DNA of 64,000 nucleotides, taken from the NCBI RefSeq assembly GCF_055900595.2, contig NZ_CM148325.1. One strand, given 5' to 3'. Shown here piece by piece: positions 1 through 53,575 of this stretch (within the stretch, counting starts at the first letter, position 1; each line of letters opens with the position of its first letter). The notes below the pieces were generated by a model. The model ran no database searches and was not told where the DNA came from. It saw only the letters and a program-made list of their open reading frames with translations. Both the position numbers and the translations under genes were made by a program.

Positions 1-10
1 AGGATTTATC

Positions 11-565
11 ATGACCGCGTATTGGCTGGCCCAGGGCGTGGGTGTCATCGCCTTTCTGATTGGTATCACAACATTTTTCAATCGTGACGAACGTCGCTTC
101 AAAAAGCAGCTTTCGGTCTATAGCGCCGTTATTGGCGTACATTTTTTTCTTCTGGGCACCTATCCCGCTGGTGCCAGTGCCATCCTTAATGCCATTCGTA
201 CATTGATTACCTTACGCACGCGCAGCTTATGGGTAATGGCGATTTTTATTGTGCTGACTGGCGGAATTGGCCTCGCGAAGTTCCATCATCCTGTCGAACT
301 ATTGCCGGTTATCGGCACGATTGTCAGTACCTGGGCGCTATTCCGCTGTAAAGGGCTGACCATGCGCTGCGTAATGTGGTTTTCAACGTGTTGCTGGGTG
401 ATTCACAACTTCTGGGCGGGGTCGATAGGCGGCACGATGATTGAGGGGAGTTTTCTGCTGATGAATGGCCTGAATATCATTCGTTTTTGGCGTATGCAGA
501 GAAGGGGAATTGATCCGTTTAAAGTAGAGAAAACAACCCCTTCCGCCGTAGACGAAAGGGGCTAA
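11..565 (+). CDS. ygjV: inner membrane protein YgjV
   Basis: 184 aa hydrophobic ORF from ATG; convergent with sstT as in K-12 synteny. Confidence 0.8.
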   Translation: MTAYWLAQGVGVIAFLIGITTFFNRDERRFKKQLSVYSAVIGVHFFLLGTYPAGASAILNAIRTLITLRTRSLWVMAIFIVLTGGIGLAKFHHPVELLPVIGTIVSTWALFRCKGLTMRCVMWFSTCCWVIHNFWAGSIGGTMIEGSFLLMNGLNIIRFWRMQRRGIDPFKVEKTTPSAVDERG

Positions 566-568
566 GTA

Positions 569-1813
569 TTAGTTACGCAGGGCGCTATTTGCCAGACGAT
601 CGTCTTCCGCCTGGCAAGCTGCTGCAGTGAACAGCACGTCAGTTGAAGAGTTCAGCGCGGTTTCGCAAGAGTCCTGCAATACGCCGATGATAAAGCCGAC
701 GGCAACCACCTGCATGGCGATATCGTTCGAAATACCGAACATATTACAGGCCAGCGGGATCAGCAGCAGAGAACCACCTGCCACGCCGGACGCACCACAG
801 GCGCACAGAGAAGCAACTACGCTCAACAGCAGCGCCGTTGGTAGATCCACCGGAATACCCAGCGTATTAACCGCAGCCAGCGTCAACACGGTAATGGTGA
901 TTGCTGCGCCCGCCATATTGATCGTTGCACCTAGCGGAATAGAAACGGAATAGGTATCACGATCCAGATTCAGCTTTTCACACAGCGCCATATTCACCGG
1001 AATGTTCGCCGCAGAGCTGCGGGTGAAGAAGGCGTACACGCCGCTTTCGCGCAGGCACAGCAGCACCAGCGGGAACGGGTTACGACGAATTTTCCACCAT
1101 ACCAGCAGCGGGTTAACCACCAACGCCACCAGCAACATACAGCCAACCAGCACCACCAGCAGTTGCGCGTAGCCCCACAGGGTGGAGAAACCGGTGGTTG
1201 CCAGCGTTGAAGCTACCAGACCAAAAATACCGATTGGTGCGAAACGAATGACCAGTTTCACCATAAAGGTGACGGCATTCGACATATCATTGACCAGGTT
1301 TTTAGTGGTTTCGTTACCGTGACGCAGTGCAAAACCGAGGCCAATTGCCCACACCAGAATCCCGATGTAGTTACCTTTCAGCAACGCGTCGATGGGGTTG
1401 GAAACCATGCTCATTACCAGCCCACGCATCACTTCTACAATGCCTGACGGTGGCGAAATATCACTCGCGCTACTGGACAAGTGCAGGGTAGAAGGGAAGG
1501 CAAAGCTGAAGACTACCGCGGCCAGAGCAGCAGAGAAGGTGCCCAGCAGATAGAGGAACAGAATAGGGCGAATGTTGGTTTTCTGCCCGTGCTGGTGGTT
1601 AGCAATAGATGCCATTACCAGCATCAGCACCAGAATCGGCGCTACAGCTTTCAGGGCACCAACGAACAAAGTACCTAACAGACCGACAGCTTCAGCCGCC
1701 GGTTTTGAGATCCATGCCAGAAGAATCCCCAGAACAAGGCCGACCAGGATTTGTTTTACCAGGCTGCCATGAGCCAGACGCCGGAATAGCCCCGGTGAAC
1801 GTTGCGTAGTCAT
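569..1813 (-). CDS. sstT: serine/threonine:Na+ symporter SstT
   Basis: 414 aa multi-TM ORF, ATG start, length and N-terminus [10 protein letters not shown] fit SstT. Confidence 0.92.
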
Positions 1814-2135
1814 TTTTCGATCCTTTCATTGTGTTGTCGCACATCCCTGGTGCGTTCTGTCGACGCATCTTTCAGGATGTAACAAAGTGTTTGCAAGGTC
1901 GAGTATAAGGAAAGTTACAGCTTCGGGAAGCGAAAAATGCTGGATTTTAAAGAGAGGTCATATTTTGCAACTTAATGGTTACATTTGTTTGACATAAAAA
2001 TAAAGCCCAACGTGCGGCTTCCAGACTGATGACAACGTCAAAAAAGTACTCGGTCAGTCCCCTCTCCCTGGAAGAGAGAGGGAGAAAACGGTGCTCATGT
2101 TGATGACAAGGTACACGGCTTAGGCAGATTAAAAA

Positions 2136-3101
2136 TCATCCCACCCGCTGCTTATCATGCCGATAATTCACCCAGGCGTTGATAATAAACGTCATCACCA
2201 GAATGCCAAACACCACACCCAGCGAAACGGCGATCGGAATATGGTAGAAGTCGACAATCAGCATCTTGATACCGATAAACACCAGAATCACTGCCAGACC
2301 ATATTTGAGCATCGAGAAACGTTCTGCTACGCCCGCCAGCAGGAAATACATCGCACGCAGGCCGAGGATCGCAAACAGGTTTGAGGTCAGCACAATAAAC
2401 GGATCGGTGGTAACAGCGAAGATAGCCGGAATGCTATCCACGGCGAAAATCACGTCGCTCAACTCCACCAGAATCAGTACCAGCATCAGCGGCGTGGCAT
2501 ACAACAAACCATTCTTACGCACAAAGAAATGCTCGTTGTCGATGGTGTCGGTCATGCGCAAATGACCGCGCAGCCAGCGCACCAGCGGCTTGTCACCAAT
2601 ACCTGATTCATCTTCATGAGCCAGCGCCATCTTCACGCCAGTAAACAGCAGGAAGGCACCGAAGATATACAGGATCCAGTCGAACTGCGAAATCAGCCAG
2701 CTGCCAGTGAAGATCATGATGGTACGCAGAACAATCGCCCCGAGTACGCCATACACGAGCACGCGGCGTTGTAATGCCGCCGGAACAGAGAAATAGCTGA
2801 ACAACATCAGCCAGACGAAGACGTTATCGACCGCCAGTGATTTCTCAATCAGATAACCCGTGAGGAAGGCCAATGCCTGAGGGTCCGCGACTTCGCGCCC
2901 CTGTGTCTGCGCCAGATACCACCAGAAAGCGGCATTAAACAATAACGACAGTGTCACCCAGACCAGCGACCAGGCCGCAGCCTGTTTCATGGTCATGGCA
3001 TGTGCCCCGCGACGCCCCTGCAACAACAGGTCGATAGCCAGCATAATGACGACAACAACAGCGAATCCGCCCCATAGCAACGGCGTGCCGACAGTATTCA
3101 T
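2136..3101 (-). CDS. alx: TerC-family membrane protein Alx
   Basis: 321 aa TerC-like ORF preceded by a long structured leader. Confidence 0.9.
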
Positions 3102-3300
3102 AGAAGTTCCTTACACATAAAAAAACGGCCAACGTCGGAAGACGTCAGCCGCTGCTTTTTATGCATAGACCTCGCCTTCCGGCAAGGTCTCACTTACAAC
3201 AAAAAAGGAATACGTCTGCGTATTCCTTTCGGGTTGCCCGGTGACCGGATGTGGTTTTTCACACATCGTAATGACGATCGACCGGCAATGAAGTTACTCC
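3102..3300 (-). promoter_or_regulatory. sraF: alx 5' leader, yybP-ykoY (Mn/pH-responsive) riboswitch-like element with terminator hairpins
   Basis: minus-strand leader contains AAAGGGGAGUA core, a perfect hairpin AGGAAUACG-CAGA-CGUAUUCCU followed by U6, and a second hairpin plus U7 abutting the alx start. Confidence 0.5.
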
Positions 3301-3383
3301 CCTTTGCAGGTAACAAAGTATGACAGACCATTCGGTCAGTCAATGGTCTGTTACATCCCTTTTACACTGTTTTACTTTGGCTA

Positions 3384-4370
3384 TTATAGTTTTACGCTAT
3401 CTGCCGGAAAAATCACCCCGGTCTGGCGGCGGATCTCGGTCAGCAGCCTGGCGGTGATACGACTGACCGCCAGCCCTGGATGATCTACCAGATGTTCATC
3501 CACCAGGGTAGCGAACAGCTCTGCTTCGTACAGCATGGTATTAATATGCTGCGGTTGGGTAAGATCCTGCATCTGGCTGCCGCGCGGCACATAGCAAACT
3601 TTCTGGCATTCAGACAGTTTTTCAATCACCAGCGATCCCGCTTCGCCCTGAATCTCACTTGCCAGCACAGAATCACTGACCTTTGAGTGCTGCAAGGTAA
3701 CGCTGAAATCACCGTAATCCATCACCACCACGCCGTGGGCATCCACACCACTTGCCAGCAAACTGGCGGTTGCCTGCACGCTTTTCGGTTCACCAAATAA
3801 CGCCACCGCCGACGCCAGACAGTAAAAGCCGATATCCATAATTGAACCGTTGGAGAATGCCGGATTGAAGGTGTTGGGATTCTCGCCGTCCAGATAACGT
3901 TGATATCGCGAGGAATATTGGCAATAGTTGAAAAAGACTTTACGCAATTTGCCAACTTTCGGCAGTACCTGGCGTAACAAATGGAAATTCGGCAGGCTGG
4001 CGGTTTTAAATGCCTCAAACAGCACCACCTGATTTTCCCGCGCACAGGCAATGGCGGCATCCACTTCCGCCAGATTCGACGCCAGCGGTTTCTCGCAAAT
4101 CACATGAATTTTATGGCTAAGGAAAAGTTGTGTCTGGGAAAAGTGCAGGGCATTCGGGCTGGCAATATACACCGCGTCAATAGCATCACTTTCTGCCATC
4201 GCTTCCAGCGACGTAAACAGATGCTCGACAGAAAAATCATTGGCGAAGTGCTGGGCCTTTTCAAGGCTGCGGGAATAGACAGCGGTTAACTTGTATTTAC
4301 CGCTCTCATGGGCGGCCTCGACGAACTGGCGGGTGATCCAGTTCGTGCCAATCACAGCGAAACGTATCAT
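3384..4370 (-). CDS. ygjR: Gfo/Idh/MocA-family oxidoreductase YgjR
   Basis: ORF 3384..4388; start placed at internal ATG (MIRFAVIGTNWI, Rossmann N-terminus), 328 aa. Confidence 0.85.
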   Translation of the reverse strand: MIRFAVIGTNWITRQFVEAAHESGKYKLTAVYSRSLEKAQHFANDFSVEHLFTSLEAMAESDAIDAVYIASPNALHFSQTQLFLSHKIHVICEKPLASNLAEVDAAIACARENQVVLFEAFKTASLPNFHLLRQVLPKVGKLRKVFFNYCQYSSRYQRYLDGENPNTFNPAFSNGSIMDIGFYCLASAVALFGEPKSVQATASLLASGVDAHGVVVMDYGDFSVTLQHSKVSDSVLASEIQGEAGSLVIEKLSECQKVCYVPRGSQMQDLTQPQHINTMLYEAELFATLVDEHLVDHPGLAVSRITARLLTEIRRQTGVIFPADSVKL

Positions 4371-4448
4371 AACGCGTGGATACTCCATAAAGGGATTCTG
4401 CCGTCAATGTAGCACGCCTTTTTCATCTTCGACGTGCGCAGATACGCA

Positions 4449-5141
4449 TTATTCTTTCGCCGGACAGCCATGCTCGCTAAACGGCCCAATCATGACCGAC
4501 GGCCCGAGATATTTCGGCTGTCGATGGAGGATTTTCGCGTCAATCACTGCGCTGACGCGAGCGAGTTTCTCCCGCAGCTGAGTATAAAAACCATGTTTCA
4601 TATTCAGGTCTGGTGCGTTAAACCCGATGGCATCGATGCCGTACTGTTTTGCCAGCCAGATGGCGCGTTGGTTATGAAATTCTTGCGAAATAATAGTGAT
4701 ATGGCTTTCACCAAACACCTTTTTGGCACGCACCACCGAATCAAGCGTTGAGAATCCGGCATAGTCGCAGAAGATGACTTTTGCGGGTACGCCTTTAGCG
4801 ATCAAAGCCTGCTGCATGCCTGAGGCTTCATCGTAATTTTTACGTCCGTTATCGCCGCTCACTAGTAGCCATTTCACTTTTCCGGCGTGGTACAACTCTG
4901 CGGCGGTATCAATGCGTCGGGTAAAGTAGCGATTACCCGGCCTCGCCCCCAACAATAAACCCACGTTGCGTGTTGGAACGGCGTTAACATCGTTCCAGGT
5001 CAGCTGTTTGCTGGCGTTGACCATTGCGCGATCGGCGATAAAAATTGTCGCTCCTGCCACAAGTAACAGTAAGCAGGCAATCTTTAGAGTCCGGCGAGAA
5101 AAACAAACGCGGCGAAAAAGGCGGGCAAATGCGCGCAGCAT
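4449..5141 (-). CDS. ygjQ: DUF218 (ElyC/SanA-like) membrane-anchored protein YgjQ
   Basis: 230 aa ORF, ATG start, N-terminal TM segment. Confidence 0.85.
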
Positions 5142-5218
5142 GGTCGTTATCCTTAACGAAAGGGGGGGAGGTCGATTTTAGGCGCTAAAGGAGGAAAAGA
5201 TAACGCCTGACATCATTT

Positions 5219-5722
5219 TCAGATTTTGTCCTGCCCAAGCGACAACTGCGTTAGCCACAGCCGGGTGTCGAACTCAAGCTGGTGGTACTGCGGTTCCATA
5301 TGACAGCACAACTGGTAAAACGCTTTGTTGTGCTCTTTCTCCTTCAGGTGCGCCAACTCGTGCACCACGATCATGCGCAAAAACGGTTCCGGCGCGTTGC
5401 GAAACACGGTAGCGACGCGGATCTCTGCTTTTGCTTTCAGCTTGCCGCCCTGCACACGCGAAACAGCGGTATGTAACCCGAGCGCGTTTTTCAGCACATG
5501 GATCTTGTTGTCATACATCACTTTATTGATCGGTGGAGCATTACGCAGAAACTGATTTTTCAGATCCTGAGTATATTGCCAAAGGGCTTTATCGGTGGCG
5601 TAGTCGTGTGTTCCCGGATAGCGTTTTGCCAGCACATCGCCCAGACGCTGTTCATTAATCAGCGTGCGCACCTGGGAAAGCAACTGTTCGGGATAACCCT
5701 GAAGATAAGTAAGATTGCTCAT
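5219..5722 (-). CDS. ygjP: HExxH metal-dependent hydrolase YgjP (WLM/SprT-like)
   Basis: [11 protein letters not shown] motif; start set to ATG at codon 13 of the ORF (167 aa); ORF track start is GTG. Confidence 0.8.
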
Positions 5723-5806
5723 AACCGCCCACGAAAAAGAGAAAAAGGGTATACTCACGCACCCTTTTCAGGGGCAACGTCGAAATTTTATCATTCAGGA
5801 GGGCCG

Positions 5807-6943
5807 ATGAGCCACTTAGACAACGGTTTCCGTTCACTGACACTACAACGTTTTCCGGCGACGGATGACGTTAACCCGCTACAGGCGTGGGAAGCGGCAG
5901 ATGAATATTTGCTGCAACAGTTGGACGACACAGAAATCCGCGGCCCGGTGTTAATCCTGAATGATGCCTTTGGGGCGTTAAGTTGTGCGCTGGCGGAACA
6001 TAAGCCGTACAGCATTGGCGACTCATACATCAGCGAACTGGCGACGCGCGAGAATTTACGCCTCAACGGGATTGATGAATCGAGCGTGAAGTTTCTCGAC
6101 AGCACCGCTGACTACCCGCAGCAGCCGGGCGTGGTACTGATCAAAGTGCCGAAAACACTGGCATTGCTGGAACAGCAACTGCGCGCATTGCGCAAAGTAG
6201 TCACGCCGGATACACGTATTATTGCCGGTGCTAAAGCCCGTGACATTCACACCTCCACGCTGGAACTGTTCGAAAAAGTGCTCGGCCCGACCACCACCAC
6301 GCTGGCATGGAAGAAAGCGCGCCTGATTAACTGCACTTTCAACGAGCCGCCGCTGGTTGATGCACCGCAAACCGTTAGCTGGAAGCTGGAGGGTACTGAC
6401 TGGACTATCCACAACCATGCGAATGTCTTCTCACGCACCGGGCTTGATATTGGCGCGCGCTTCTTTATGCAGCATCTGCCAGAGAATCTCGAGGGTGAGG
6501 TTGTCGATCTCGGTTGTGGTAACGGCGTTATTGGCCTGACGCTGCTTGATAAAAACCCGCAGGCGAAAGTGGTGTTTGTCGATGAATCACCGATGGCGGT
6601 TGCTTCCAGCCGTTTGAATGTTGAAACCAACATGCCAGAGGCGTTGGATCGCTGCGAGTTTATGATCAACAACGCGCTCTCCGGCGTGGAGCCGTTCCGC
6701 TTTAATGCTGTGCTCTGCAACCCGCCGTTTCACCAGCAACATGCACTGACCGATAACGTTGCCTGGGAAATGTTCCACCACGCGCGCCGCTGCCTGAAAA
6801 TCAACGGCGAGCTGTATATCGTTGCCAACCGTCACCTGGATTACTTCCATAAACTGAAGAAAATTTTTGGCAACTGCACCACCATTGCCACAAATAATAA
6901 ATTTGTGGTGCTGAAAGCGGTGAAGCTGGGGCGTCGTCGGTAA
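5807..6943 (+). CDS. rlmG: 23S rRNA m2G1835 methyltransferase RlmG
   Basis: ATG at 5807 after AGGAGGG RBS; 378 aa; NPPFH methyltransferase motif; the upstream ORF extension overlaps ygjP. Confidence 0.9.
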
Positions 6944-6954
6944 GATTGACAGCT

Positions 6955-7050
6955 ACCTGCCGGATGCGGCGTAAACGCCTTATCCGGCATACGTTCAGCA
7001 CATTACCCCCAGGTCGGATAAGACGCGGCAAGCGTCGCATCCGGCAATGT
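6955..7050. repeat. REP/BIME palindromic units
   Basis: GCCGGATGCGGCGTAAACGCCTTATCCGGC and a second inverted REP copy. Confidence 0.7.
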
Positions 7051-7198
7051 CTGCCCAGTTCTGGAATCGCGCTTCCATAAAACAAAAAATCCCTGTCACC
7101 ATCCTCTACATTCTCTTGTTTAGCGTTTTTCTACGTTTATTCTTCCGTCACACAGATAAATTCATCCGTTGCCAATTTGTCAACGGACGTGATGAAGA

Positions 7199-7513
7199 AT
7201 GCACCTGATAACTCAAAAAGAATTGAAAGATGCTGCGGAAAAATACCCGCAACATAAAACGGAGTTGGGGGCTCTGGGGAACACGATTGCTAAGGGATAT
7301 TTCAAAAAACCTGAGTCATTAAAAGCAGTATTCCCTTCTCTGGATAACTTCAAATATCTGGATAAGCATTATGTTTTCAATGTCGGGGGCAATGAATTAC
7401 GTGTTGTAGCAATGGTCTTTTTTGAATCGCAAAAGTGCTACATACGTGAAGTTATGACGCATAAAGAATACGATTTCTTTACCGCCGTTCATCGTACTAA
7501 GGGGAAAAAATGA
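7199..7513 (+). CDS. higB: type II toxin HigB (mRNA interferase)
   Basis: 104 aa ORF, 4 bp ATGA overlap with downstream antitoxin gene. Confidence 0.9.
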   Translation: MHLITQKELKDAAEKYPQHKTELGALGNTIAKGYFKKPESLKAVFPSLDNFKYLDKHYVFNVGGNELRVVAMVFFESQKCYIREVMTHKEYDFFTAVHRTKGKK

Positions 7514-7926
7514 TTGCGATTGCCGACATCTTGCAAGCAGGAGAAAAGCTAACTGCTGTGGCACCTTTTCTGGCGGGTATTCAGAACGAGGAACAATACA
7601 CCCAGGCGCTGGAACTGGTAGATCATCTGCTGCTCAACGATCCTGAAAACCCCTTGCTGGATCTGGTGTGTGCCAAAATAACCGCGTGGGAAGAATCAGC
7701 GCCCGAATTTGCTGAATTTAATGCCATGGCTCAAGCCATGCCTGGCGGTATAGCTGTGATTCGTACCCTTATGGATCAATATGGTTTAACCCTTTCCGAT
7801 CTGCCGGAAATTGGCAGTAAATCGATGGTGTCACGCGTTTTGAGCGGGAAGAGGAAATTAACGCTGGAACACGCTAAAAAACTGGCAACGCGATTCGGCA
7901 TTTCTCCCGCCTTGTTTATTGATTAA
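7510..7926 (+). CDS. higA: type II antitoxin HigA (HTH-XRE)
   Basis: 138 aa ORF translationally coupled to higB. Confidence 0.9.
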   Translation: MIAIADILQAGEKLTAVAPFLAGIQNEEQYTQALELVDHLLLNDPENPLLDLVCAKITAWEESAPEFAEFNAMAQAMPGGIAVIRTLMDQYGLTLSDLPEIGSKSMVSRVLSGKRKLTLEHAKKLATRFGISPALFID

Positions 7927-7933
7927 CGCGACG

Positions 7934-7957
7934 TGCCGGATGCGTCACATCCGGCAC
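7934..7957. repeat. single REP-like hairpin (possible bidirectional terminator)
   Basis: GTGCCGGATGCGTCACATCCGGCAC between convergent higA and fadH. Confidence 0.6.
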
Positions 7958-7970
7958 TTCAAATAACGAT

Positions 7971-10016
<2,046 letters not shown>

Positions 10017-10116
10017 TTATGTGGTCGGATGAGTTCTAATTTAGCCGTCGCTGGAGAAAAGGGAAAAGGGGAGTGCGGGGTTTGTGATGGGAATCAAAAA
10101 GAATACGCTGGTGGTA

Positions 10117-10204
<88 letters not shown>

Positions 10205-10213
10205 CGTTGCAAA

Positions 10214-15265
<5,052 letters not shown>

Positions 15266-15277
15266 ATGCCGCCGTAA

Positions 15278-20537
<5,260 letters not shown>

Positions 20538-25731: not shown

Positions 25732-25807
25732 TGGTGGCCCCTGCTGGACTTGAACCAGCGACCAAGCGATTATGAGTCGCCTGCTCTAACCACTGAGCTA
25801 AGGGGCC
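25732..25807 (-). tRNA. ileX: tRNA-Ile2 (anticodon CAU, lysidine-modified), 76 nt with encoded CCA
   Basis: reverse complement reads GGCCCCTTAGCTCAGTGGTTAGAGCAGGCGACTCATAATCGC...GGTTCAAGTCC...GGGGCCACCA. Confidence 0.88.
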
Positions 25808-47830: not shown

Positions 47831-47909
47831 CCGGAAAGCGGTTCACAGATCTCGCTTCGAACCAGGCAGGCCTATTGACGCTGTTGTTTTTTCAACCTAA
47901 AGTAAAGGA

Positions 47910-48060
47910 ACAAGGGTAAGGGAGGATTTCTCCCCCCTCTGAATTGGTTGTTAATAAGCCTGGAAACTTACTAGTAACAACACAATCAGTATGATGACGA
48001 ACTTCATCATAACCCTTTCCTTCTATAAGGCCCCTTCTTCGGGAGGGGCTTTCCCGTTTC
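47910..48060 (+). ncRNA. sibE: Sib antisense sRNA, copy proximal to hldE (likely sibE)
   Basis: plus-strand TTGACG-N17-TAAAGT promoter at 47875-47903; plus-strand terminator CCCCUUC-UUCG-GGAGGGG at 48031-48048 then U-rich tract; fully antisense to the ibs ORF; ends inferred. Confidence 0.6.
47951..48010 (-). CDS. ibsE: Ibs-family hydrophobic toxin peptide (19 aa, MMKFVIILIVLLLVSFQAY)
   Basis: minus-strand ATGATG start preceded by GGAAAGGG RBS, TAA stop; sequence fits the Ibs pattern. Confidence 0.75.
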   Translation of the reverse strand: MMKFVIILIVLLLVSFQAY

Positions 48061-48231: not shown

Positions 48232-48286
48232 TATGTGTTAATGAAACCTTCTTGACGCTGATTTTTTTTCAACCTAAAGTAAAGGA

Positions 48287-48436
48287 ACAAGGGTAAGGGA
48301 GGATTTCTCCCCCCTCTGAATGGCCGTTAATAAGCGTGGAAACTTATCAGTAACAGCACAATCAGTATGATGACGAACTTCATCATAACCCTTTCCTTAT
48401 GTAAGGCCCCTTCCTCGGGAGGGGCTTTCCCGTTTC
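48287..48436 (+). ncRNA. sibD: Sib antisense sRNA, copy proximal to yqiK (likely sibD)
   Basis: TTGACG-N17-TAAAGT at 48252-48280; terminator hairpin at 48405-48426; antisense to second ibs ORF. Confidence 0.6.
48327..48386 (-). CDS. ibsD: Ibs-family hydrophobic toxin peptide (19 aa, MMKFVIILIVLLLISFHAY)
   Basis: second copy of the 19-codon ORF with the same RBS context. Confidence 0.75.
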   Translation of the reverse strand: MMKFVIILIVLLLISFHAY

Positions 48437-51882: not shown

Positions 51883-52134
51883 GCTTATTCTCAGGGCGGG
51901 GCGAAATTCCCCACCGGCGGTAAATCAACTCAGTTGAAAGCCCGCGAGCGCTTTGGGTGCGAACTCAAAGGACAGCAGATCCGGTGTAATTCCGGGGCCG
52001 ACGGTTAGAGTCCGGATGGGAGAGAGTAACGATTCTGTCGGGCATGGACCCGCTCACGTTATTTTGGCTATATGCCGCCACTCCTAAGACTGCCCTGATT
52101 CTGGTAACCATAATTTTAGTGAGGTTTTTTTACC
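51883..52134 (+). promoter_or_regulatory. sroG: FMN riboswitch (RFN element) and expression platform in the ribB leader
   Basis: CAGGGCGGGGCGAAATTCCCCACCGGCGGTAAA...CCGACGGTTAGAGTCCGGATGGGAGAGAGTAACG matches conserved RFN aptamer blocks directly upstream of ribB. Confidence 0.85.
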
Positions 52135-52868: not shown

Positions 52869-53575
52869 TCTGTTACCAGCCGCGCCCTAACAGGCGCATA
52901 CGATCTGACATTTGCATTCAACTTCGTTACTTACGGCCCGTAAACGGGCTGCCCGGATATGGAATCGATAACTGCTCCCCCATTTTATCCTCTTCAAGCT
53001 GGTGCTTTATGTAGTCCTGTATCTTCGCCGTGTTCTTACCCACCGTATCGACATAGTACCCTCGGCACCAGAACTCCCTGTTTCTGTATTTGAATTTCAA
53101 ATCCCCAAACTGCTCGTAAAGCATCAGACTGCTTTTCCCTTTCAGATATCCCATAAAGCCGGATACGCTCATTTTGGGTGGGATTTCCACAAGCATATGG
53201 ATATGATCTGCGCAGCACTCTGCTTCCAGAATCCGTACGCTTTTCCACTCACACAGCTTTCTCAAAATACTGCCTATCGCCCTACGCTTCTCTCCGTAAA
53301 ACGCCAGTCTTCGGTATTTCGGCGCAAAAACTATGTGATATTTACAGTTCCAGCGGGTGTGCGCTAAGCTCTTTTCGTCCCCCATTGGGACCCCCTTTTG
53401 ATTTCTTGTTTGACACTTGCAGTTGCCAGACCGCAAGGTGTTTTAACAAATCAAAAGGGGTTTTAATAACTGGCTCAAAGCTGAAAGCTTTCCGGAACCC
53501 CCAGCCTAGCTGGGGGTTTTCTGTGCACAAGAAACCGAAGCTATTACTGGCTTCGGTTTTTATTTTGCTCTTGTT
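52869..53575. mobile_element. IS200 copy (about 0.7 kb)
   Basis: 152 aa IS200-type TnpA plus characteristic structured left end: terminator hairpin AAACCGAAGC...GCTTCGGTTT (53532-53559), hairpin AACCCCCAGC...GCTGGGGGTT, and a long stem pairing with the RBS; boundaries estimated from the expected ~707 bp size. Confidence 0.75.
52927..53385 (-). CDS. tnpA: IS200 transposase TnpA (Y1 HuH)
   Basis: start at ATG for MGDEKSLAHTRWNCKYHIVFAPKYRR; HIHMLVEIPP HuH motif; 152 aa. Confidence 0.9.
   Translation of the reverse strand: MGDEKSLAHTRWNCKYHIVFAPKYRRLAFYGEKRRAIGSILRKLCEWKSVRILEAECCADHIHMLVEIPPKMSVSGFMGYLKGKSSLMLYEQFGDLKFKYRNREFWCRGYYVDTVGKNTAKIQDYIKHQLEEDKMGEQLSIPYPGSPFTGRK

Follow-up and report, generated by a model that had tools for sequence, protein, structure and literature searches.

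The imperfect palindrome that precedes the toxin gene of the higBA operon in the window, i.e., the whole 64,000-nt stretch of DNA analysed here, appears to be the one surviving operator for the antitoxin HigA, left by a 29-bp deletion that fused two operator sites and removed the -10 box; higBA is probably silenced. We put the probability of this reading at about 80%. The deletion is a derived and rare state that took with it the only strong promoter match, and it has probably occurred more than once. Autoregulation of higBA by HigA in E. coli has already been published, and what the present analysis adds is comparative.

The pair consists of two open reading frames on the plus strand. The first, higB (positions 7199-7513), encodes a RelE-like, ribosome-dependent mRNA interferase toxin of 104 residues, which was assigned to the Pfam family HigB_toxin (PF09907; score 78.6 bits, cut-off 27) and matched chain A of PDB entry 5IFG over residues 1-104 (E = 2.9e-66). 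The second, higA (7510-7926), encodes a 138-residue antitoxin and repressor with a C-terminal helix-turn-helix of the XRE type (HTH_3 at residues 84-135). This protein is identical to K-12 HigA (WP_000560266.1) and matched chain B of 5IFG over its full length (E = 1.2e-86). The toxin gene comes first, on the same strand as the antitoxin gene, and the two overlap by 4 bp (ATGA); the toxin-first HigB/HigA pair with a 4-bp overlap that a first-pass annotation had described is thus borne out by the coordinates and by Pfam. In E. coli Z0117EC0005 an identical stretch is annotated as higB/higA in RefSeq, where the HigA accession is that of the K-12-type protein. The locus is the chromosomal higBA locus of E. 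coli (ygjNM), with rlmG upstream and fadH convergent downstream.

Both reading frames are intact, with no visible pseudogenisation as yet. HigB carries two lineage-specific substitutions, A8E and V24G (window positions 7221 and 7269), which are specific to the clone of the window. These are the only higB changes relative to strain 2020CK-00188, and both are non-synonymous. Position 8 is alanine or proline in 27 of 28 homologues and never glutamate, and position 24 is variable among homologues but never glycine. The two substitutions would fit a relaxed or altered selection on HigB; this pattern of residues is suggestive but not decisive.

The REP elements that the first-pass annotation had placed on both sides of higBA are also present, with head motifs at 6959 (+), 7033 (-), 7935 (+) and 7943 (-). 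An inverted pair (BIME) begins just past the rlmG stop codon (6943); its first element is an inverted repeat at 6958-6989 on the plus strand, with the head motif at 6959, and its second, at 7015-7046 on the minus strand, consists of inverted repeats with the head motif at 7033-7045. On the other side, between the convergent higA and fadH genes, an inverted repeat at 7930-7960 forms a REP-derived hairpin made of two opposed REP heads (7935 and 7943). As is usual for REP and BIME sequences, these are imperfect palindromes, roughly 35 nt long, that share the head motif GCCGGATGCG and recur many times per genome: we counted 12 copies of the head motif GCCGGATGCGNCG in the window, where 0.64 would be expected, and a query with the REP region matched at a median of 12 places in each genome.

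The palindrome itself, CCGTTGCCAATTTGTCAACGG, occupies positions 7166-7186, with 10-nt arms around a central T at 7176 and a single non-complementary pair (C7172/T7180); a repeat finder gave it arms of 11 nt (7165-7175 and 7177-7187) that are 91% complementary. It lies just upstream of the higB ATG (7199), as had been reported from the first pass, with a gap of 12 nt. Its 15-bp core, TTGCCAATTTGTCAA (7169-7183), matches O2, the promoter-proximal site of K-12, at every base, which agrees, at the level of sequence, with the earlier suggestion that it is a HigA operator. The predicted operator is composite: the outer CCG derives from the left flank of O1, and the core and the CGG of the right flank derive from O2. 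When the window was searched for further copies of TTGCCAATTTGTCAA with up to three mismatches, we obtained 3 matches against 3.2 expected, i.e., no other HigA sites.

A palindrome of this kind is not rare by itself. The chance of finding one in a given 60-nt stretch is about 1%, and the 64-kb window contains 32 palindromes of such quality, compared with 8.9 ± 3.1 in random sequences (first-order Markov sequences of 64 kb with window-matched composition; arms of 10 nt, no more than one mismatch and a loop of 0-3 nt). Elsewhere in the window, a perfect palindrome, TTTAGTAAAATTTTTACTAAA, lies at 18887-18907 between ebgA and ebgR, and a related one, TTTAGTAAAATTTTACTCAA, at 20173-20192 between ebgR and ygjH; these are probably operators for EbgR. 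Another, TATGATGACGAACTTCATCATA, is found inside each of two tandem SIB RNA genes (RF00113, type I antitoxin RNAs; 47875-48025 and 48252-48401; 143 and 147 bits), at 47990 and 48366. The window also contains an FMN riboswitch on the plus strand (51883-52031; 121 bits), the Hfq-binding small RNA STnc490 on the minus strand (53395-53518; 146 bits) and a tRNA gene on the minus strand (25732-25807), which ARAGORN called as tRNA-Met (anticodon CAT), whereas the identical RefSeq genome has it as tRNA-Ile of the lysidine-modified ileX type.

The K-12 control region differs from that of the window. Alignment gave the order ...CATCCG TTGCCAAT CTGGCAACGG ATGTTATCATA TTGCCAAT TTGTCAACGG ACGTGATGAAGA ATG, in which O1 would be CCGTTGCCAATCTGGCAACGG, followed by ATGTTATCATA and then by O2, TTGCCAATTTGTCAACGG. 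This assignment draws on sequence conservation and on a paper that names "E. coli O1-O2 sites" (PMC12266136); a search of papers for the operator sequences themselves returned no match. In a consensus scan, the K-12-type locus gave TTGCCA-16-TATCAT with a TG extension, matching at 10 of 12 positions. The left half of O1 supplies the -35 hexamer TTGCCA, with the extended -10 box, TGtTATCAT, situated between the two operators. With a position weight matrix the K-12 spacer scored 12.65 bits, which is within the top 1.3% of random 272-nt window pieces.

The start of the operon b3083|b3082 was mapped by SMRT-Cappable-seq to position 3234480 of MG1655, on the reverse strand (PMC6131387 supplementary file 4). 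Within the TTGCCAA of O2, this base is the A directly following CC, 7 nt past TATCAT and 25 nt before the ATG, so that the mapped start is placed exactly as the TTGCCA/TATCAT promoter predicts, and inside the left half of O2. Among the entries listed in the same file, higBA has one start site, and the rlmG start gives rise to rlmG alone, with no read-through variant into higB. We found no higB entries in the supplements of a Cappable-seq study (PMC4782308) and a Rend-seq study (PMC11092163). A single promoter before higB, with putative -35 and -10 boxes and inverted repeats, repressed by HigA and induced through Lon, was described by Christensen-Dalsgaard et al. (PMC2814082), and reviews that cite Jadhav 2020 give HigA and HigBA a similar, nanomolar affinity for the operator (PMC8138530).

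Compared with K-12, and also with 2020CK-00188, the window lacks exactly 29 bp between the direct repeats TTGCCAAT. Its sequence is the expected product of removing the inter-repeat stretch together with one copy of TTGCCAAT, and the remaining copy of this 8-bp repeat, at 7169-7176 on the plus strand, forms the deletion junction in the alignments with both genomes. The deletion deprives O1 of its right half and the promoter of its -10 box, TGtTATCAT, and the left flank of O1 is now joined to O2; it is because of this fusion that the palindrome has its outer CCG...CGG extension. The base equivalent to the K-12 start is at 7174 (+), still 25 nt before the ATG, but it lacks the -10 box expected 7 nt upstream. 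The comparison with K-12 that the first-pass annotation had proposed therefore gave a divided answer: the core of the palindrome is indeed K-12 O2, but K-12 has two operators with a -10 box between them, whereas the window has one. In place of the K-12 arrangement, with O1 over the -35 hexamer and O2 over the start about 28-29 bp away, the window has a single site at -30.

Neither did we find in the window a promoter of its own of the K-12 type, i.e., a sigma-70 promoter with a -35 TTGCCA, an extended -10 box and a start 25 nt before the ATG. The consensus scan returned no plus-strand promoter between 6900 and 8000. The best remaining sigma-70-like match, TTGTTT-16-TATTCT at 7116-7143 (+), is weak; its score of 6.95 bits, the best in the window, was reached by 43% of random 272-nt window pieces, and the same match occurs in K-12, where it is not listed as a start. 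We also considered whether the junction had made a new promoter, and rejected this candidate: at 16-18 nt past either TTGCCA or TTGTCA there is no usable -10 box. The statement that the palindrome overlaps the higBA promoter thus fails for the strain of the window, because the palindrome is a remnant left after deletion of the -10 box, and no recognisable promoter is found there.

These results bear on the reading from which the first-pass annotation had started, in which higBA retains an intact, autoregulated promoter overlapped by a single HigA operator. The palindrome does lie where the antitoxin operator of a type II system usually lies, its core is that of O2, the TTGCCA that serves as -35 hexamer in K-12 is kept at 7169-7174, and one review calls E. 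coli higBA a single-operator system (PMC10135005). However, the hexamers 16-18 nt past TTGCCA are GATGAA, ATGAAG or TGAAGA, which match at 2-3 of 6 positions and have no final T, and a transcript from TTGCCA would begin at or past the ATG. With no match to a plus-strand promoter, a matrix score at background and the K-12 -10 box inside the missing 29 bp, we regard an intact promoter as decidedly unlikely.

Alternatively, some low-level expression of higBA might persist, either from a weak promoter further upstream, such as that at 7116-7143, or by read-through from rlmG, with HigA on the fused operator acting as a roadblock past the start, so that autoregulation would continue in altered form. 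Weak sigma-70-like matches are present upstream, the reading frames, leader and operator are intact, and HigA has been constrained enough to equal the K-12 protein. K-12 has the same weak matches, yet only one start is found among the operon entries listed, and the rlmG transcript is a single-gene operon in K-12 among those entries; in addition, two REP hairpins stand between rlmG and higB. Residual expression of this kind therefore seems to us unlikely, and the loss of most transcription from the operon's own promoter is the reading that we prefer.

The ancestral state was examined in homologous loci, found by scanning one genome per species with HigA (37 loci). An O1 site, a hexamer like TATCAT or TATGAT and an O2 site occur in this order in 2020CK-00188, Escherichia sp. 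E1V33, E. whittamii, Kluyvera georgiana and two Pseudocitrobacter species, where the two sites are spaced by about 29 bp, and O1 is accompanied by a degenerate O2 in a Citrobacter sp. and two further Enterobacteriaceae. The layout is kept in gammaproteobacterial homologues (marine and others) in which HigA is 42-52% identical; the distant homologues read GTTGACnnnTTGGCAAC, about 8-10 nt containing TATA, GTTGCCAATAnGTCAAC, GGAG and ATG. When operators were scored as TTGNC-N5-GNCAA with no more than one mismatch, the distal site was present in all 30 loci without the deletion, homologues with 42-52% HigA identity among them, and both sites were present in 25 of these 30, spaced 26-30 bp apart. 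The proximal site alone was seen only in the window and in strain L1PEag1 among the loci scored. Because every undeleted locus keeps the distal site and 25 of 30 keep both, the short allele is a derived deletion, and an origin of the long allele by insertion is contradicted by the two sites carried by close outgroups.

The same survey bears on whether the palindrome arose by chance or has a role apart from HigA, as an RNA hairpin or terminator. About nine such palindromes are expected per random 64 kb, and REP hairpins lie nearby. Against this, homologous loci with HigA identities as low as 42% have TTGNC-N5-GNCAA at an unchanged distance from the higB ATG, and conservation, on which the first-pass annotation had made its operator reading depend, is what these loci display. 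The position of the palindrome, and the occurrence of this motif before higB at every homologous locus examined, indicate that it is non-random, and a chance origin was rejected on the conservation of the motif. A hairpin or terminator was rejected as well: the palindrome is followed by ACGTGATGAAGA, which has no T-run, no terminator-like site was called at 7166-7186, the loop is only 1-3 nt and there is no REP head motif. We consider such origins very improbable, and the palindrome is best read as the surviving operator.

A query specific for the junction found the short allele, as a full-length match, in 9 of the 2835 complete E. coli genomes that have the region. In the remaining 2826 it matched on the O2 side only, and these have the K-12-type two-site promoter. 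Eight of the nine carriers are approximately 100% identical to the window over 20 kb and thus represent one clone, whose next relatives are 98.2% identical. The nearest relative, 2020CK-00188, has the two-operator allele and only 6 differences from the window in about 1 kb. Short repeats may collapse in poor assemblies, and the 29-bp gap could in principle be an artefact of assembly or sequencing; however, nine complete genomes, each assembled independently and together representing different hosts and countries, share this junction, and we rejected this explanation, whose probability we consider negligible. The source of the window is an unusually divergent lineage labelled E. coli: positions 1-20000 have at least 99% identity in only 8 of 5426 complete E. 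coli genomes, a handful are at about 98% and the bulk at about 95.4%.

The ninth carrier, L1PEag1, encodes a HigB of the K-12 type, and over about 1 kb there are 18 differences between this strain and the window, including one that lies 3 bp from the junction. Because its haplotype is different, two separate origins of the deletion are probable. A second, independent event at the 8-bp repeats is the simplest reading of L1PEag1; acquisition of the deletion by transfer of a very short recombination tract is possible.

Other states of the locus are more frequent. A second junction-specific query showed that 1493 of 5426 complete genomes have lost about 300 bp here. In strain 104 (locus L003, 1690-1780, corresponding approximately to window 7137-7436), this deletion extends over both operators and the promoter, reaches to about codon 80 of higB, and leaves an orphan higA whose protein is identical. 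Like the allele in the window, it is a natural loss of the control region of higBA with an unchanged HigA protein. It is common, however, and removes both operators and part of higB, whereas the allele in the window retains both reading frames and one operator and is found in 9 genomes. In about 1130 genomes neither the promoter-proximal region of higB nor its 3' end was detected, and in KY 1497 the whole locus is absent, with rlmG directly adjoining fadH. In Escherichia sp. MOD1-EC7003 and E. albertii (loci L006 and L007), an unrelated reading frame, not higB, ends just before the ATG of a higA that is 94-96% identical.

The higBA cassette (window 7051-7926) is 98.4-99.3% identical to that of K-12 MG1655, whereas the flanking core genes ygjQ/ygjP, rlmG and fadH (4449-6943 and 7971-9989) are only 92-95% identical. 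This contrast, together with the polymorphism in presence and absence, suggests that the history of the cassette differs from that of its flanks and is more recent, with horizontal exchange between lineages.

The allele in the window resembles K-12 higBA (ygjN-ygjM, b3083-b3082) in its rlmG-higB-higA-fadH position, in an identical HigA and a HigB that agrees at 102 of 104 residues, and in the toxin-first order, 4-bp overlap, 25-nt leader and O2 core. It differs in having one operator rather than two and no strong promoter match, and in the A8E and V24G substitutions. Derepression of higBA in K-12 follows treatment with chloramphenicol or serine hydroxamate. In K-12, HigA represses higBA, and HigB is toxic and is neutralised by HigA (PMC2814082; Jadhav 2020, as cited in PMC8138530). 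Since HigA is identical to that of K-12 and the core identical to O2, HigA would be expected still to bind the fused site and to repress from it, and HigB of the window allele may likewise be toxic.

The higBA system of Proteus vulgaris Rts1 is also toxin-first, with two inverted-repeat operators, O1 at about -30/-24 and O2 at about -8/-2 from the start site, and with the antitoxin as the main repressor (PMC12266136). Its HigA, however, has an N-terminal helix-turn-helix in another fold arrangement (PMC6987408), its operator sequence is unrelated, and its complex did not bind E. coli hig operator DNA (PMC12266136). E. coli mqsRA, characterised in PMC2814082, is a further type II pair in which the toxin gene comes first and the promoter contains palindromic sites for the antitoxin, but it has an unrelated antitoxin fold and palindrome, and lies at another locus.

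Taken as a sequence of events, the usual state would be a HigA dimer on two GTTGNC-N5-GNCAAC sites, with O1 over the -35 hexamer, O2 over the start and the -10 box in the gap. Replication slippage or short-homology recombination between the TTGCCAAT left half-sites would then have deleted 29 bp and joined the left flank of O1 to O2. With no -10 box and no right half of O1, toxin and antitoxin would have been silenced together. In the lineage of the window higBA has thus probably lost most of its own transcription, and may be viewed as a silenced, decaying toxin-antitoxin pair that has followed one of several routes of decay. A further idea, which we regard as rather unlikely, is that the tandem operators act as a deletion hot-spot, because the half-site repeats bracket the -10 box, and that the occurrence of one 29-bp deletion on two unrelated haplotypes would reflect a recurrent, possibly selected and safe route of silencing, in which a single slippage event spares a HigA-binding site. 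If this were true, the operator and intact reading frames that are kept might permit reactivation, or a residual role for HigA.

The layout of O1, -10 box and O2 is conserved from E. coli to homologues with approximately 45% HigA identity, with the operator consensus GTTGNC-N5-GNCAAC. The E. coli higBA locus occurs in three natural states of decay, i.e., the 29-bp loss of the -10 box, the loss of about 300 bp, and genomes in which higB was not detected. The case also cautions against reading regulation from a single strain, since here the "best" palindrome is an artefact of fusion at the site of a former promoter.
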